Source: a phage
Assembly: GCA_011884725.1 (NCBI GenBank)
Contig: GCA_011884725.1_3919.1
Strand: one strand, 5' to 3'
Length of the DNA stretch: 64,000 nucleotides
Shown here piece by piece: positions 9,144 to 50,146 of the stretch. Position 1 is the stretch's first letter. The number at the start of each line of letters is the position of its first letter. A program made the translations under genes and the position numbers. The notes below the pieces were generated by a model. That model had not been told where the DNA came from. It made no database searches and was given only the letters and a program-made list of their open reading frames with translations.

Positions 9144-9307
9144 CCTTATGTAAAACTTGACAAGGTGGTGTGGGTCTTGATAGGCTTACATCACCTTTTT
9201 TATTGGATGTTAGATATGGCAGAGAGTATTATTGGGTTGTTCATAGGTTCTGTCTTACTAGGGTTCTTTTTAGGACTCTCTTATTGTGAATTAAGAGGCA
9301 AGTTAAA

Positions 9308-17886: not shown

Positions 17887-17916
17887 TTGACAAGGGGCTT
17901 TGAAGCCCCTTAGAAT
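17887..17916 (+). promoter_or_regulatory. promoter-like TTGACA-18-TAGAAT with GGGGCTTTGAAGCCCC hairpin in the spacer, upstream of rIIB
   Basis: Direct read; hairpin may instead terminate rIIA transcripts. Confidence 0.35.
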
Positions 17917-17960
17917 AGCCTTACAAAATGATTTATTAACTAACAAGAGAGAGTAATAAG

Positions 17961-23537: not shown

Positions 23538-23584
23538 AAGGCCGCCTAACCCATTGAAAAATTTAAGGTAAGGCAGCCTTTTTC
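23538..23584 (+). terminator. terminator-like long hairpin AAGGCCGCCT...AGGCAGCCTT + TTT
   Basis: 10 bp arms with one mismatch, after the macro-domain gene. Confidence 0.4.
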
Positions 23585-24376: not shown

Positions 24377-24461
24377 AGTACTTTACAGGGGGCTTATAGT
24401 TCGATAAAGTAAGCCCCAGATAAAGAGCTTTACCACTAAATCCTAAATTGGAGATTCAAAA
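24377..24461 (+). repeat. type-B intergenic cassette: AAGTACTTTACA, hairpin GGGGCTTA...TAAGCCCC, then AGATAAAGAGCTTTACCACTAAATCCTAAA(C/T)TGGAGATTCAAAA-ATG
   Basis: Direct read; hairpin 24388-24417; recurs at 24757-24840, 25824-25910, 26619-26707 with variable loop sequence. Confidence 0.8.
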
Positions 24462-24752: not shown

Positions 24753-24840
24753 TAAAGTACTTTACAAGGGGCTTAAAAGTTGATACCTTAAGCCCCAGAT
24801 AAAGAGCTTTACCACTAAATCCTAAACTGGAGATTCAAAA

Positions 24841-25137: not shown

Positions 25138-25463
25138 TGACTGGTATCACTGCAATCATTGCCATTTTCGCGCTCTATAAGGCATATAAAGCCTATAATC
25201 TAGCAAATAAGGCAATCACACAACAGGTTAGTAATAGCCTTGTAATGAGCTTTCTAGAGCGGTTGAGCGATGAACAATTAAAGCGGTTAGAAATGAGCTT
25301 CAGATTCAGGGCGAGAACTTATCAAATCAGCGACATTTTCAAAGATGATTTTCAATTAGTCGATGATTATAATTCTCTGATAAATGCTTTAAATATTAGT
25401 GACTTAAAAGACTATCATACTGTAATTGTTCAAGAGTTGAGCAAACGAAAACAAAACTGTTGA
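25131..25463 (+). CDS. hypothetical small membrane protein (array gene 4)
   Basis: ORF track; start overlaps upstream gene; hydrophobic N-terminus. Confidence 0.45.
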   Translation: MLMTGITAIIAIFALYKAYKAYNLANKAITQQVSNSLVMSFLERLSDEQLKRLEMSFRFRARTYQISDIFKDDFQLVDDYNSLINALNISDLKDYHTVIVQELSKRKQNC

Positions 25464-25488
25464 CACTGATTTTTAGATAGATTAAATT
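25460..25488 (+). promoter_or_regulatory. sigma70-like promoter TTGACA-17-TAAATT inside type-A cassette
   Basis: Hexamers read directly; an identical roughly 60 bp segment including this promoter recurs at 26324-26352. Confidence 0.5.
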
Positions 25489-25552
25489 ACACATCAACGG
25501 GGAGGGAATGACCTTCCCCACTAAGTAAAGTCCTTAAACTAGGAGATTCAAA

Positions 25553-25825: not shown

Positions 25826-25910
25826 AGTACTTTACAGGGGGCTTATTAGTCTGTACAGTAAGCCCCAGATAAAGAGCTTTACCACTCAATCCTAAATTGG
25901 AGATTCTAAA

Positions 25911-26315: not shown

Positions 26316-26323
26316 AAATTTTA

Positions 26324-26352
26324 TTGACACTGATTTTTAGATAGATTAAATT
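26324..26352 (+). promoter_or_regulatory. sigma70-like promoter TTGACA-17-TAAATT (second copy)
   Basis: Same sequence as 25460-25488. Confidence 0.5.
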
Positions 26353-26416
26353 ACACATCAACGGGGAGGGAATGACCTTCCCCACTAAGTAAAGTCCTTA
26401 AACTAGGAGATTCAAA

Positions 26417-26614: not shown

Positions 26615-26707
26615 CTGATAAAGTACTTTACAAGGGGTTTATAGTTCGATAAAGTAAGCCCCAGATAAAGAGCTTTACCACTAAATCCTTAAACTAGGAG
26701 ATTCAAA

Positions 26708-27550: not shown

Positions 27551-27640
27551 ACAAGCCTGATAAAAGTCTGTAAATTACACATCAACGGGGAGGGAATGAC
27601 CTTCCCCACTAAATAAAGTCCTAAACTGGAGATTCTAAAA

Positions 27641-27982: not shown

Positions 27983-28014
27983 TCAATAACTTATAAAAAA
28001 CTTTTAAAAAAGTG

Positions 28015-28714: not shown

Positions 28715-28779
28715 ATTATCAATCAACGGGGAGGGAATAACCTTCCCCACTAAGTAAAGTCCTAAACTGGAGATTCAAA

Positions 28780-29043: not shown

Positions 29044-29109
29044 ATTACTAATCAACGGGGAGGGATGACCTCCCTACTAAACAAAGTCCTAAACTGGAGA
29101 ATCTAAATT

Positions 29110-29422: not shown

Positions 29423-30992
29423 CGTCTATAAAGAGACTCTATACAGTCCCTTTCCTTTCCTTCCTAGAATCTATCCCACTAATTCGATAGAGACTATCTC
29501 ATACCTTAAAAAGCAATAACTCTATAGTCTACTCTATAACCTCTTATCAAATCAACTTAAATATAAGCCCATAACCCGAAAGGGAAGGGCAACCACTAAA
29601 ACGCTCTATAAAGCTCTATAACAGCCTTATCAATCTAACTTAAGCAATCATATTAACCTACTCTAAAAAGCCCTTTATAGAGCTTCCCAGAGCCTTAAAA
29701 GAATCTTATAAGGGTGTAAGCTTTATTATCTCGTTAGCTATCTTGTGAACTACTAAAAAGGGCTTGTTAGTGTCTTAAAAGTATGTTATAGGGGCTATAA
29801 AGTTACTTCAAAGTTACGTAAAAGGGGCTATAAAGTTACGTAAATGCTAGCCCCCTTAACATTTTCTTAACAATTTCTTAACAATCCCTACATAGTTATG
29901 CTTTTAAGGCACTTGTTAGAGACTTGTTAGCCCCTTGTTAAATCTCTGTTAAGACCACGTAAAAGCCTTGTAAGAGTCTTTAGCATAGCCTTTAAAGCCT
30001 CTGTAAAGCCCTATAAAGAGGTGTCTGTATAGTTGGGGTGTAATTACTAGGAAGAGACTTAAAAGAGCTTACAAGGAGCTATAGAGAGCTTTTAAGAGGG
30101 CTATTTAGAGAATCACTAAGAGGGAAAGGGAACGATAAGAAAAGAGATAGTGACCATGTTAATAGCTTGTTAAAAAGATTAAACACTTGTTAGGAACTTG
30201 TTAATTATCCCTACAAAATAACTCTTTAAAATTAACTTGTTAGCTCTTGTTAGTCATCTGTTAAGATTCTGTAAAGCCTATGTATCAACTGTTAAGAAAC
30301 TGTTACACCCTTGTTAGTTCTGTTAAGAATCTGTTAAGACCTCTGAAGAGATGTTAAGAAGATGTGAGAACTGTTAAGGAATTGTTAATGATATTTTAAA
30401 ATTTTGCAAAGTACTTGTAAGGGAGTTGTTAAGGGCTACCAAGCAGATATACATCTTCTACAGATATTTTTCAGTCCCTTCAAAGACCCTAAAAAATGAC
30501 TTGATAGTCCTATTTTATAAAAATTTTAAAATTCTGAATAATTACCTATACAGTCTTTTAAAAATACAGGTAATAACAGGCTTATAAGATACCTTGTTAG
30601 TACCGTGTTAGACCTTGTGAGATAAGGTCTGTAAAGATATTCCTGTTAAGTTTGTTAAAACAGTCTATATAGAGGCTTAGTATTTCCTAGTGAACACCTA
30701 TAGAGGGTAACATAGCTAACCTAGAGATTAAGAGGTGTATAGGAGCTTCTAAGAGGGTGTAGAGAGATGGTTAAGGTGATTGTATAGGTTGTTAAGAAGG
30801 CTTGTTAGAAGAGTGTTTAGAAGGGCTATACAGAGGGGCTATTAAGACCACTAGATAGATACTAAGATACTATATAGTACTATATAACTATATAGAGAGT
30901 AAGATTAAGAAGGTTGTTAAGAAGGGTAGATATTTTATTCACATATGATGGTGACCCAGCGGTTGGGACAACCGATAAATTTTATAAAAATT
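29423..30992. repeat. ORF-free region densely packed with short degenerate repeats (CTATA(A/G)AG family in the left part; (C/T)TGTTA(A/G)G family in the right part)
   Basis: No ORF of 60 aa or more on any frame; about 30 copies of TTGTTAG/CTGTTAAG-like octamers and about 12 CTATAAAG-like copies counted by eye; bounded by convergent terminators. Confidence 0.75.
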
Positions 30993-38512: not shown

Positions 38513-38676
38513 AGATAATCCTCTTGTCTTCTGTAATTTTGAAAGAACAGGTACAGACCAATTTCAGAGGATGAATAGTAGATTAACTCTACCCTTTTTG
38601 ATTCCTTACAGTGATTGGTATTCTTACCTTTCTTCGGTTTATTTGATTTTCTCATTAAGTCTCCTTTGTAGAACAA
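38494..38676 (-). CDS. hypothetical small basic protein
   Basis: ORF track; first gene of the leftward block. Confidence 0.35.
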   Translation of the reverse strand: MFYKGDLMRKSNKPKKGKNTNHCKESKRVELIYYSSSEIGLYLFFQNYRRQEDYLCVVPN

Positions 38677-38904
38677 GGCAGACCTACAGCTTTAACTAAG
38701 ATGGTACAGTAATCCATACAACAAGTCAAGAACTATTGCAAGTTAAAAAAGTTGTTGACAAAGTACTTGACAAGGTGTAGGCTTATAAATACTTAGAAGA
38801 TAACTTAAAAGGTTCCTCTAAAAAGGCTATTTAAACAGATATCTTTCTGGATATCTATCTTTTATCTTAAAAGCCTTTTAAGAGGTCTTATAAGAGGCAT
38901 ACCA

Positions 38905-39276
38905 ATGAAAAACAGAACAAACAAAGGCCAGTTTAAAAAAGGCCAGTCTGGAAACCCATCTGGAAGACCGAAAGGCTCACGTAACAAAAGTTCACTCGTA
39001 AAAGCTCAACTGACCATTGATAATTCTGCTGAGTTTGCTGCAAAGTTGTTTGAAGCGATTGTTACAAGGGACGCTGCTAAGCTTGCAGAGTTCGGGTTAA
39101 ACACAGACGATGTAACCATCAAGAGCATGATTGAAGTCGGTAAAACCATCATGACTCACTCAGCAGGTGAGATGAAAGCAATTGCAGCAGACACTAAGAA
39201 GACCCCTGATAACGGTGGTCAGTCTCAGACAGATAACAAACCAACGTTCTCTGCTGTTGCAACCCTCAAAAAATAA
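38905..39276 (+). CDS. hypothetical protein with N-terminal GNPSGRPKG motif
   Basis: ORF track; AGAGG upstream; basic Gly/Pro-rich N-terminus. Confidence 0.5.
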   Translation: MKNRTNKGQFKKGQSGNPSGRPKGSRNKSSLVKAQLTIDNSAEFAAKLFEAIVTRDAAKLAEFGLNTDDVTIKSMIEVGKTIMTHSAGEMKAIAADTKKTPDNGGQSQTDNKPTFSAVATLKK

Positions 39277-39288
39277 TTTTAAAAGGTG

Positions 39289-39318
39289 TTGACAGACTCT
39301 ACAAAGTTGCTCTAAAGT
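39289..39318 (+). promoter_or_regulatory. sigma70-like promoter TTGACA-18-TAAAGT flanked by perfect 9 bp inverted repeat TGACAGACT / AGTCTGTCA
   Basis: Direct read upstream of the vWA gene; inverted-repeat arms at 39290-39298 and 39316-39324. Confidence 0.5.
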
Positions 39319-39357
39319 CTGTCACATCAAACAACAAATGAGAGAAGAGAGTAAAAT

Positions 39358-40773
39358 ATGAGCGAATTATTTAAACATGCGCACCTTCATGCAGGTCGAA
39401 CTGAAAATGGTGCTGTAAACCATACTTCATCAATGTCTGCTCTTGTAGACTTTTACAAAGCTGCTGGTTCAAGCCGTAGCAATGTAGAAATCTTACCAGA
39501 CCTGTTCTACAAAGCTTTGCGTGAGGATGTTGATGTTGCAGTTCGTATTTTACTGCATATGCGAGATGTACGAGAAGGTATGGGTGAGCGTAAAGCCTTC
39601 AGAACTGTTTTACTTCAAGCGATTGAAGACAAAGTTTTAGAGCCTACGCAGGTTCTTCGCATTATGGATAAGATTGCAGAACTTGGTCGTTTTGATGACT
39701 TCAAAATCTTTGTAGGTACTCGTTTCGAGACAGATGCCTTCAAGCATTTAGAAGCAGCATTACTAGACCCTGCAACAGCAGGTTTGGCAGCTAAGTGGTT
39801 ACCACGAGTCAAACCACGTCATAAGCAGTTTGTAAAACGTTTCTGCAAGTTTGCCAACTTGAGCGAGAAAGAGTACCGCACACTGTTGTCTGCACTATCT
39901 GATACAGTTGAGCAAAAAATCTCTGCTAATGAGTTTGGTAAGATTGACTACAGTAAGATTCCTTCACTTGCTGCTGCACGCTACCAAAAACTGTTTAACC
40001 GTAAAGATGGAGAGCGATACAAAGCTTACATCGAGTCCTTATCAAAGGGTGAGGCTAAGATTAATGCTGGTGCTGTTTACCCATACGATGTGATTAAATC
40101 TGTCAAGCATGGTAATGCAGATGTTGCTAATGAGCAGTGGAAAGCACTACCAAACTGGATGGCAGAAGGTGAAAACATCTTGTGTATGTCTGATGTATCA
40201 AGTTCAATGTCTTGGGTGAATTTTGGCTCCATTACTGCTCTGGATATTGGTGTATCACTTGCCTTGTATGTAGCAGAACGCAATACAGGCTGCTTTAAGA
40301 ATGAGTTGATGGTTTATTCAACAAACCCTCACTTCATCGAACTGAGTGGTGATTTACGAAACCGTCATCGTCAGGTGATGCGACACGTTGAATATGGCTC
40401 AACTAACTTACAAGCAGCTTTTGACCGCATTCTTGAAACAGGTAAAAGAAACAACTTGACTCAGAAAGATATGCCAAGTAAGCTTATCATCTTCTCCGAT
40501 ATGGAGTTCAATCAGGTTGATGGAGCTAACGGTCGTACAAACTTTGAAGCAATTCAGAGTAAGTACAAAAAAGCTGGATATGAGATGCCACAACTGGTAT
40601 TCTGGTACTTAGCAAACCGTAATGGTACTTGCGAAGTGTCTGTTAAGGATAACGGTGTAGCAATGGTATCTGGTTTCTCTCCAGCCACTTTAAAAGCTCT
40701 GCTTGGTGGTGAGAAGTTTGACCCAATCAGCGTAATGCTCAAAGCAGTAATGATTGACCGTTATATCTGGTAA
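39358..40773 (+). CDS. vWA-domain protein with MIDAS motif
   Basis: 471 aa; C-terminal half has DxSxS (CMSDVSSSM) and a later IIFSDMEF acidic motif typical of von Willebrand A domains; helical N-terminal half. Confidence 0.55.
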   Translation: MSELFKHAHLHAGRTENGAVNHTSSMSALVDFYKAAGSSRSNVEILPDLFYKALREDVDVAVRILLHMRDVREGMGERKAFRTVLLQAIEDKVLEPTQVLRIMDKIAELGRFDDFKIFVGTRFETDAFKHLEAALLDPATAGLAAKWLPRVKPRHKQFVKRFCKFANLSEKEYRTLLSALSDTVEQKISANEFGKIDYSKIPSLAAARYQKLFNRKDGERYKAYIESLSKGEAKINAGAVYPYDVIKSVKHGNADVANEQWKALPNWMAEGENILCMSDVSSSMSWVNFGSITALDIGVSLALYVAERNTGCFKNELMVYSTNPHFIELSGDLRNRHRQVMRHVEYGSTNLQAAFDRILETGKRNNLTQKDMPSKLIIFSDMEFNQVDGANGRTNFEAIQSKYKKAGYEMPQLVFWYLANRNGTCEVSVKDNGVAMVSGFSPATLKALLGGEKFDPISVMLKAVMIDRYIW

Positions 40774-40791
40774 AAAGTTTTAAAAAGGGTA

Positions 40792-40820
40792 TTGACAATG
40801 TGTTTAATACCCTTTAATAT
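40792..40820 (+). promoter_or_regulatory. strong sigma70-like promoter TTGACA-17-TAATAT overlapping 9 bp inverted repeat AAGGGTATT / AATACCCTT
   Basis: Direct read, about 120 bp upstream of the first tRNA; inverted-repeat arms 40785-40793 and 40806-40814. Confidence 0.6.
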
Positions 40821-40882
40821 GTTCTACATAGAAACGAAATGAGAGCTTTTCTAAGATACTGAAAAATATTTTAAAAAAGTTC

Positions 40883-40917
40883 TTGACAACCACTAAAAAA
40901 TAATGTTAAAGTGGTTA
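40883..40917 (+). promoter_or_regulatory. promoter-like TTGACA with inverted repeat AACCACT / AGTGGTT; -10 weak
   Basis: Direct read; same A-rich-GT-TTGACA upstream pattern as the other promoters. Confidence 0.3.
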
Positions 40918-40938
40918 CATAGAGTTTGAAAAGTTTAT

Positions 40939-41015
40939 CTCTGTTTAGCTCAGCTTGGTAGAGCGTTCCGTTTGGGGCGGTAAGGCCGGAGGTTCAAGTC
41001 CTCCAACAGAGACCA
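40939..41015 (+). tRNA. tRNA-Pro (anticodon TGG)
   Basis: Acceptor CTCTGTT/AACAGAG, C1:G72, T-arm GGAGG-TTCAAGT-CCTCC, anticodon loop TTTGGGG, A73, encoded CCA. Confidence 0.75.
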
Positions 41016-42299: not shown

Positions 42300-42314
42300 A
42301 TTTCAATAAAGTTG

Positions 42315-42343
42315 TTGACATTGAGATGTGACTACTTTATAGT
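42315..42343 (+). promoter_or_regulatory. strong sigma70-like promoter TTGACA-17-TATAGT inside the tRNA cluster
   Basis: Direct read; followed by about 200 bp without ORF or tRNA before tRNA-Arg. Confidence 0.55.
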
Positions 42344-42545
42344 AACCTTAGTTTTCGTTGCGTAGCGTCTATTTTGCAAATTTAAAATAAATGCAAACGA
42401 CAATGTTTTTCTGGCAGTAGCTTGATAGGCTAAACACCAGTGAGGTCTTCCAATCCCTCATCAAAGAATTTGGCGTACTCGCCCACGGTATGATTAATAA
42501 GGTGGGCATCTTTAAGGGCTTTCTAAGAGAGTCTTTAAAGATAAT

Positions 42546-49646: not shown

Positions 49647-50146
49647 TGGCTGAAGTTATCTCTATTTCAAATGCTACACGAGTGCATTCGTATAGAGGTG
49701 TTCTTATTATCACTGACAAATTATCTGTAGAGGTTGGCTCAAGGGTCAGCCTTTCAGGTTATGTAAGTGATGGTGAAACCTCTGACGTTTTCACTATTTG
49801 CAGGTTACTTGATGCTCCAATGAGTGGGAAACCGTTTATTTCAGGAAATTGTAGTGAAATTGTTAAAATTCCATTTGACAGTTCATGCCTTTTGGGTGTA
49901 AAGTTATATAACTGCGAGAATAAACGTATCAATGTTAATAGCATTGAAGCCGCTTTCATTACCCTCGACACTGCATTTCAATCTCCAATGACAGTTAATA
50001 AAGAAACAAACAGACTTGAATACATTTTTTCACAAAATGATTACAAAGTACTTGTCAAAGGTAAAGTATATGATATGATTGTAAATGTGGTAGATGAATC
50101 TGGTAACCATTCAACAGTCCTTAAACAAAAAGTAAGGTTTAATTAA
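49646..50146 (+). CDS. hypothetical head-module protein
   Basis: ORF track. Confidence 0.45.
   Translation: MAEVISISNATRVHSYRGVLIITDKLSVEVGSRVSLSGYVSDGETSDVFTICRLLDAPMSGKPFISGNCSEIVKIPFDSSCLLGVKLYNCENKRINVNSIEAAFITLDTAFQSPMTVNKETNRLEYIFSQNDYKVLVKGKVYDMIVNVVDESGNHSTVLKQKVRFN

Follow-up and report, generated by a model that had tools for sequence, protein, structure and literature searches.

Predicted sigma-70 promoters overlap probable RNA stem-loops around the gene 42 homologue of a Felix O1-like phage

The 64,000-nucleotide stretch of phage DNA in contig GCA_011884725.1_3919.1, referred to here at its full length as the window, is that of a Felix O1-like myovirus, and at three places around its homologue of Felix O1 gene 42 (39289, 40792, and 40883; sites 1, 2, and 3) a promoter-like sequence coincides with an inverted repeat. 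A first-pass annotation had noticed these palindromes and proposed either that a repressor or activator binds them or that the transcripts begin with a stable 5' hairpin. The observation is real and more general than that annotation saw, and the pattern of substitutions among related phages points to RNA stem-loops that would occur only in read-through transcripts. We consider it somewhat probable that sites 1 to 3 are host sigma-70 promoters, each overlapping a plus-strand RNA stem-loop that acts on transcripts arriving from upstream. Between 39000 and 41100, identity is 98.7% with Escherichia phage wV8 and 97.3% with Salmonella phage Felix O1, and this region matches 253 phage records, nearly all of them from Felixounavirus and its relatives. 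For comparison, the two intergenic regions were collected from ~45 relatives, comprising Felixounavirus, Suspvirus (~86% DNA identity), Mooglevirus (~81%), and metagenomic contigs.

A promoter scan recovered all three promoter-like sites where the first-pass annotation had placed them (Table 1). Sigma-70 promoters are expected to have a -35 sequence near TTGACA, a -10 of the form TAnnnT, and a spacer of 16-18 nt; all three sites fit this pattern with an exact TTGACA, and each is intergenic and in the same orientation as the gene downstream. In the relatives both hexamers are either invariant or retain TAnnnT and the spacer centers vary, as seen at the gp42 promoter in 21 distinct relatives and at P2, where both hexamers are invariant across 25 distinct relatives. 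The starts, inferred from spacing, each coincide with an ACAT motif. These features support the prediction that sites 1 to 3 are sigma-70-type host promoters.

Generic promoter-like matches are not enriched in the region (34 found against 32.8 expected). The module TTTTAAAA-N4-6-TTGACA, however, occurs four times against 0.01 expected, at 28002, 39277, 40778, and 40869, always on the plus strand and always between genes. We take its upstream tract to resemble the Escherichia coli UP-element consensus. An A-rich-GT-TTGACA context had been described earlier as common to these three sites and to 25460, 28015, and 42315; the module bears this out for the three sites and for 28015, and only a looser A-rich context is present at 25460 and 42315. 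The description of the promoters as 'early-type' likewise fits in part: by reverse transcription PCR in Felix O1, open reading frames (ORFs) 45-49 in the transfer RNA (tRNA) region peak at 5 min, and ORFs 41 and 42 are maximal at 25 min (Whichard et al. 2010, PMC3185647). The leaders predicted for the gp42 promoter (39324-39345) and P2 (40826-40845) are alike, with ACATCAAACAACAAATGAGAG and ACATAGAAACGAAATGAGAG, which suggests a duplicated promoter-leader module. Each of these leaders also holds a short ATG-initiated frame of ~7 codons; mini-ORFs of this kind (ATGAGAG...) are most likely no more than purine-rich ribosome-binding regions. A further match at 49875 (TTGACA-18-TAAAGT) was dropped as a promoter, being located within an ORF and having no hairpin.

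The inverted repeats differ from site to site in both length and placement. At site 1, TGACAGACT (39290-39298) and AGTCTGTCA (39316-39324) form a perfect 9-bp repeat whose arms take in 5 nt of the -35 hexamer and 3 nt of the -10, in agreement with the earlier account of arms that flank or overlap these elements. The corresponding RNA stem is made up of 5 + 11 pairs, interrupted by a bulge and a single mismatch, and this 16-pair structure encloses the entire core promoter. Site 2 has a perfect 10-bp repeat rather than the 9 bp initially reported, formed by AAAGGGTATT (40784-40793) and AATACCCTTT (40806-40815); it extends to 12 pairs when G.U and A-U are counted, three of them being G-C, and is matched by a terminator scan. 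The site 3 repeat is only 7 bp long (AACCACT at 40888-40894 and AGTGGTT at 40910-40916). The three palindromes differ in sequence, as the first-pass annotation had said; their arms are unrelated and each is unique within the 64 kb. Hairpins 1 and 2 begin 8 nt and 10 nt, respectively, past the TAA stop codons of the genes ahead of them (39274-39276 and 40771-40773), unlike site 3, which is preceded by a non-coding leader. The loops at site 1 (11-17 nt) and site 3 (15 nt) exceed the 3-8 nt of intrinsic terminators, and the sequences following these stems, CAUCAAAC and ACAUAGAG, have no U-tract; at site 2 the stem is followed by UUUAAUAUGUU, a partial match to a U-tract that passes the terminator scan. 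The 120-nt P2 leader up to tRNA-Pro, which contains an additional hairpin, folds with z = -3.16.

Table 1. Coordinates in the window of the genes, predicted promoters, hairpins, and repeated cassettes discussed in the text (MFE, minimum free energy).
Feature	Coordinates	Strand	Details
gp41-like gene, DUF5681	38905..39276	+	ORF list; Pfam DUF5681 E = 2e-14; wV8 and Felix O1 annotation
UP-like A/T tract of gp42 promoter, AAAAAATAATTTTAAAAGGTG	39268..39288	+	Part of TTTTAAAA module count
Hairpin 1	39285..39328	+	Outer helix 39285-39289 / 39324-39328, inner helix 39291-39301 / 39313-39323; MFE -15.6 kcal/mol, z = -3.21
Predicted gp42 promoter (site 1)	39289..39318	+	-35 TTGACA 39289-39294, spacer 18 nt, -10 TAAAGT 39313-39318; predicted start ~39324-39326
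gp42-like gene, 471 aa, DUF2828 and DUF7788	39358..40773	+	ORF list, database match, Pfam
UP-like A/T tract of P2, AAAGTTTTAAAAAGGGTA	40774..40791	+	3' part is the left arm of hairpin 2
Hairpin 2	40784..40815	+	Arms 40784-40795 / 40804-40815, 8-nt loop, then UUUAAUAUGUU; MFE -14.1 kcal/mol, z = -2.84
Predicted promoter P2 (site 2), upstream of tRNA array	40792..40820	+	-35 TTGACA 40792-40797, spacer 17 nt, -10 TAATAT 40815-40820; predicted start ~40826-40828
Leader hairpin between P2 and P3	40841..40884	+	Pairs 40841-40850 / 40875-40884 and 40852-40858 / 40867-40873 (17 pairs); covers UP-like tract of P3
Predicted promoter P3 (site 3)	40883..40912	+	-35 TTGACA 40883-40888, spacer 18 nt, TG 40904-40905, -10 TAAAGT 40907-40912; predicted start ~40917-40919
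Hairpin 3	40888..40916	+	7-bp arms, 15-nt loop; weakest of the three; z = -1.28, inverted-repeat p = 0.10
tRNA-Pro, first of 26 tRNA genes, downstream of predicted P2 and P3	40939..41015	+	ARAGORN
Type A cassette, 4 intergenic copies	24377-24461, 24753-24840, 25826-25910, 26615-26707		Repeated, early region
Type B cassette	25464-25552, 26316-26416, 27551-27640, 28715-28779, 29044-29109		Repeated; ...TAAATTACACATCAAC-GGGGAGGGAATGACCTTCCCC-ACTAAGTAAAGTCCTAAACTGGAGATTCAAA-ATG

In the whole window, only six inverted repeats combine perfect arms of 9 nt or more with a loop of 3-25 nt. This is about the number expected by chance, but four of the six fall on predicted promoters. When sequences were shuffled with the hexamers held fixed, arms as long as those observed arose with p = 0.002 at site 1, 0.002 at site 2, and 0.10 at site 3, and the plus-strand folding z-scores show the same order (Table 1). 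None of the ten TTGACA look-alikes within coding sequence has a hairpin (all z > -0.4). The hairpins at sites 1 and 2 are clearly non-random, and hairpin 3 is credible only as part of a wider pattern.

The substitutions in the relatives point to pairing in RNA. Among stem positions that lie outside the hexamers, 19 of 46 sites show transitions preserving plus-strand RNA pairing (A-U to G.U, G-C to G.U, and G.U to either G-C or A-U), and one of 35 shows a transition that breaks it (Fisher p = 3e-5; p = 7e-5 with fewer genomes, without the metagenome loci). This asymmetry is not a product of mutation bias, because at unpaired positions G>A and T>C are as frequent as A>G and C>T. This site-level test and its mutation-bias control replaced a column-shuffle control of pairing at sites 1 to 3, which was uninformative with most columns invariant. 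Overall, pairing in the relatives is 94-100% on the plus strand, 84-91% on the minus strand, and 82-90% when scored as Watson-Crick DNA.

Hairpin 1 is paired in 93.8% of cells among 21 distinct sequences, with variable pairs GU/AU/GC, AU/GU, and CG/UG, and diverged lineages have C-G or U.G in place of its C.A mismatch. Hairpin 2 is paired in 100% of cells on the plus strand and 88% on the minus strand, the plus strand being above the minus strand in 25 of 25 sequences; its changes comprise two of UA to UG and one of GU to GC. Two common variants, A40806G (16 of 31 distinct sequences) and A39296G (10 of 32), keep a plus-strand G.U pair. Hairpin 3 is 95% paired, with C40890T and C40891T each yielding U.G, and in Mooglevirus its right arm is swapped for an inner hairpin, AACACT / AGTGTT, through the coordinated changes C40890A and A40903G. 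The leader hairpin is paired in 98.8% of cells, with a CG to GC compensatory pair in Mooglevirus and one-sided variation at four other pairs.

The same design recurs elsewhere in the genome with other sequences. All four promoters that carry the TTTTAAAA module have a hairpin over the core; at the fourth, 28015, it spans the spacer, the -10, and the start (z = -2.76). In the rIIA-rIIB intergenic promoter (17887-17922, TTGACA-18-TAGAAT) a perfect 8-bp GC hairpin, AAGGGGCT-TTGA-AGCCCCTT, lies wholly in the spacer (z = -2.65) with no U-tract on either strand, and phage SUSP1 retains the stem with a different loop and diverged flanks. At 9157 a canonical terminator (hairpin 9162-9205; 16-bp stem, GAUA loop, U6; z = -5.14) holds a TTGACA-18-TAGGCT promoter-like core, and this terminator is kept in SUSP1 and Moogle even though the upstream flank has fully diverged.

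Two repeated cassettes extend the pattern. The type A cassette consists of a stop codon, AGTACTTTACA, GGGGCTTA, an 11-13 nt loop, TAAGCCCC, AGATAAAGAGCTTTACC..., GGAG, and ATG, and places TTTACA-17-TAnnnT within a two-tier hairpin (10 + 9 pairs with an internal loop; z = -4.96). Seven further copies are present in SUSP1, with compensatory changes; every copy keeps the -35 TTTACA and, within the -10, only the T, A, and T. Pairing in this cassette reaches 97% of cells, with GC to UA and AU/UA/UG covariation, and its covariation score was reached by two of 500 shuffles. In the type B cassette, which follows the promoters at 25460 and 26324, the predicted start is closely followed by the GGGGAGGGAATGACCTTCCCC GC hairpin, and the early mRNAs from type B cassettes probably begin with a 5' stem-loop. 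The promoter at 38755, which corresponds to Felix O1 P41 (PMC3185647), has no hairpin (z = +0.82); it lies in a divergent intergenic region, at the head of the rightward unit, and is the only one of these promoters without co-directional transcription upstream.

We propose the following explanation. At each of the three sites the left arm is at or upstream of the -35 and the right arm is in the -10 and discriminator region, so a complete hairpin would be present only in RNA from an upstream promoter. The sources of such read-through would be P41, then the promoter at 39289, and then that at 40792. In the read-through RNA the hairpin would serve 3'-end formation or protection, and transcripts starting at the embedded promoter would begin at or beyond the 3' arm and so escape it; the DNA palindrome would then be a by-product of 40 bp having to encode both an RNA hairpin and a promoter. 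Overall, the sites are most likely 3'-end stem-loops (terminators, stabilizers, or processing sites), each overlapping the promoter that comes next. Site 2, the t42 of Felix O1, is built like an intrinsic terminator, weak and seemingly bidirectional, and 9157 too has a terminator's anatomy. Stabilizing, pausing, or processing roles are more plausible for sites 1 and 3, 17887, and the type A cassette because these have no U-tract. For Felix O1, both the passage of transcription through its many terminators and the timing of transcription were reported as unknown (PMC3185647).

Several observations weigh against this explanation. The informative changes within sites 1 to 3 are all one-sided, double compensatory pairs being confined to the leader hairpin and the paralogous cassette. 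The two strands are poorly distinguished at site 1 (93.8% pairing on the plus strand against 90.8% on the minus strand), where the minus-strand fold is slightly the stabler in the window (-17.2 against -15.6 kcal/mol). The arms are not clearly more conserved than their surroundings, with 29% of stem columns variable against 42% of unpaired columns, and site 3 by itself is not significant. With their large loops (11-17 nt) and no U-tract, sites 1 and 3 are not canonical terminators. The promoters, starts, and read-through are predictions, and the literature searched yielded no data on starts, 3' ends, or processing for any Felix O1-like phage.

The simplest alternative is that the palindromes are functionless, having arisen by chance in A/T-rich and partly self-complementary promoters and being kept through conservation of the promoters themselves. 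The chance-like genome-wide number of perfect repeats of at least 9 bp, the weakness of site 3, the high conservation of the flanks of the arms as well, and the lack of a double compensatory change within sites 1 to 3 are all compatible with this. It is nonetheless unlikely, as it leaves unexplained the location of four of the six repeats on promoters, the results of the hexamer-preserving shuffles at sites 1 and 2, and the recurrence of the architecture with other sequences and covariation; hitch-hiking would not be expected to give the 19/46 against 1/35 asymmetry, and the hairpin is missing both from the look-alikes within ORFs and from the leading promoter P41. Binding of a dimeric phage or host protein to the duplex, repressing or activating the promoters as in the operators of the first-pass annotation, draws some support from arms that overlap the -35 and -10, where repressors typically act, and from the Cro/CI-type helix-turn-helix protein encoded by Felix O1-like genomes (for example CPT_Moogle47 in the Moogle annotation); the timing of Felix O1 transcription was also stated to be unknown (PMC3185647). 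The palindromes share no half-site, however, and no arm recurs at other promoters even with one mismatch. The half-site centers are 26, 22, and 21 bp apart, which is neither a fixed distance nor one helical turn. DNA symmetry is not kept in the relatives, where A40806G and A39296G retain a plus-strand G.U pair at the cost of a G.T in the duplex, and the arms of the paralogous cassette covary rather than hold one sequence. We therefore regard operators as very unlikely.

A slightly lower probability still attaches to minus-strand terminators, in which the hairpin and the upstream A-tract (a U-tract on the minus strand) would halt antisense transcription from the tRNA region. Site 2 read on the minus strand is GGGUAUU...AAUACCC followed by UUUUUAAAACUUUUU, the t43 of Felix O1 (PMC3185647), and the minus-strand z-scores of the three sites are -2.35, -2.80, and -2.53. 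But every gene and tRNA from 38905 to beyond 46117 is on the plus strand, leaving no obvious minus-strand transcript to stop, and the common variants give C.A mismatches on the minus strand, whose pairing at site 2 is the lower of the two in every sequence. Extrusion of a cruciform under supercoiling, switching the promoter on or off, is highly improbable: perfect 9-10 bp inverted repeats do span the promoter core, and an engineered E. coli promoter is reportedly regulated in this manner, but loops of 12-17 nt such as those at these sites are very unfavorable for extrusion, and the relatives gather G.T mismatches in the arms, lowering Watson-Crick pairing as noted above. Least probable of all is a protective hairpin at the 5' end of the transcripts made from these promoters themselves, the other mechanism suggested in the first-pass annotation. 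The type B cassette does place its GGGGAGGGAATGACCTTCCCC hairpin just past the predicted start at 25460 and 26324, but at sites 1 to 3 the left arm overlaps or precedes the -35, which puts it 25-40 nt ahead of any start that the -10 would allow. Because the predicted starts fall at or beyond the 3' arm, these transcripts exclude the left arm and cannot contain the hairpin, and their predicted 5' untranslated regions are unstructured and purine-rich.

The interpretation of sites 1 to 3 as promoters overlapping stem-loops formed in read-through RNA adds to what has been published for Felix O1. Two rho-independent terminators, t42 (23547..23575, gggtattgacaatgtgtttaatacccttt) and t43 (23542..23572, complement), were predicted there with TransTerm (Whichard et al. 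2010, PMC3185647, Table 2); both have the same sequence as site 2 and lie directly after gene 42. That paper did not note the TTGACA-17-TAATAT promoter and UP-like tract inside the t42 hairpin, and lists sites 1 and 3 neither as promoters nor as terminators, naming only P11, P41, P45, P102, and P117 as promoters. It also reports 57-bp and 39-bp intergenic direct repeats (section 2.1) with neither a promoter nor a hairpin reading; these correspond to the type A cassette (CTTTACA-GGGGCTTA...TAAGCCCC-AGATAAAGAGC; 57 bp) and to the promoter repeat of 25460 and 26324. The GenBank annotations of wV8 and Felix O1 have no promoter or operator features at sites 1 to 3. Beyond the 2010 genome paper, our literature searches found no promoters inside hairpins and no Felix O1 transcriptomes or start-site maps, and a Pseudomonas phage ONT-cappable-seq paper does not describe a promoter-in-hairpin architecture. 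The site 2 hairpin is thus already known as a terminator, and what appears to be new, judged from sequence comparison, is the recurrent and conserved nesting of sigma-70 cores in RNA hairpins in Felix O1-like phages.

Comparison with well-known systems helps to place the arrangement. Strong sigma-70 promoters with UP elements include the tandem E. coli rrn P1/P2 and the phage T5 early promoters, and the sites resemble these in their exact -35, TAnnnT, 17-18 nt spacer, and A/T tract at about -40 to -60; P2 and P3, 91 bp apart in tandem before stable-RNA genes, recall rrn P1/P2 in particular. We know of no description of the rrn or T5 promoters as being enclosed in hairpins. Stem-loops between cistrons of a polycistronic early transcript are also known from phages T7 (early RNase III processing sites) and T4 (intercistronic hairpins), and the type A cassette and site 1 would resemble T7-type RNase III sites in having a two-tier stem with an internal loop or bulge and ~16-20 bp in total; sites 2 and 3, at 12 and 7 bp, fall short of the roughly 20-bp coaxial stem of T7-type sites, and there is no sequence similarity. 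To our knowledge the T7 and T4 sites have not been described as overlapping a promoter core. In lambda sib/tI retroregulation, too, a hairpin is complete only in transcripts from far upstream, and the fate of the RNA depends on where transcription began. The likeness is one of analogy only: in lambda the difference is at the 3' end, through read-through of tI, and RNase III cleavage is proven, whereas here the difference would arise on the 5' side and cleavage is only putative.

A broader and more doubtful proposal is that Felix O1-like phages systematically nest internal sigma-70 promoters in stem-loops, so that, for a given gene, read-through RNA would have one hairpin that local RNA lacks and the two would have separate fates (termination, cleavage by RNase III, or stabilization), amounting to a genome-wide sorting of transcripts by origin akin to that of lambda sib. 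At hairpins with no U-tract, a polymerase sitting at the embedded promoter might also aid release of the incoming one. If such nesting is indeed routine, it would explain how a compact genome combines 3'-end formation of one unit with re-initiation of the next, as well as the strong conservation of some annotated 'terminators' and 'direct repeats', and it would show where to seek transcript boundaries. Felix O1 is a classic phage of Salmonella typing and biocontrol, and the practical value is modest, consisting of better promoter and terminator parts for engineering Felix O1-like phages, together with an example of overlap between DNA and RNA signals that lends itself to testing. For annotators there is a warning that a palindrome over a promoter need not be an operator.

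The gp42-like protein has DUF2828 and DUF7788 (vWA-like) domains, and its gene, directly upstream of the tRNA array, is labelled vWFA or 'RNA-binding protein' in some records (the latter by NCBI). An Rfam 15 scan of 38600-41000 at E <= 5 gave tRNA as the sole match, with no Y-RNA-like or other Rfam RNA beside this 'RNA-binding' gene. The gene is missing from the Kolesnikvirus relatives ST-3 and Ep030, in which the tRNAs come directly after the gp41 homologue. An odd tRNA-like gene with a two-base anticodon 'tt' is placed between the gp41 homologue and tRNA-Pro in these relatives (ARAGORN; 1925-1997 in both L042, Salmonella phage ST-3, and L041). The equivalent promoters of ST-3 and Ep030 have only weak hairpins (-7 to -9 kcal/mol), such as TGACAG-N12-CTGTCA at 2311-2334 of L042, which are suggestive and were judged too weak to count as support. 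Inside the tRNA array of the window, the promoter at 42306-42344 (TTGACA-17-TATAGT), which matches Felix O1 P45 at 42315 (PMC3185647), is flanked by a weak 7-bp repeat, ATAAAGT / ACTTTAT, that reaches the -10 (z = -1.5). Finally, one of the six perfect repeats in the window, a 9-bp inverted repeat of TATA motifs at 30870-30895 (CTATATAGT-ACTATATA-ACTATATAG), lies away from any TTGACA promoter and could be another kind of signal, for example a late promoter.

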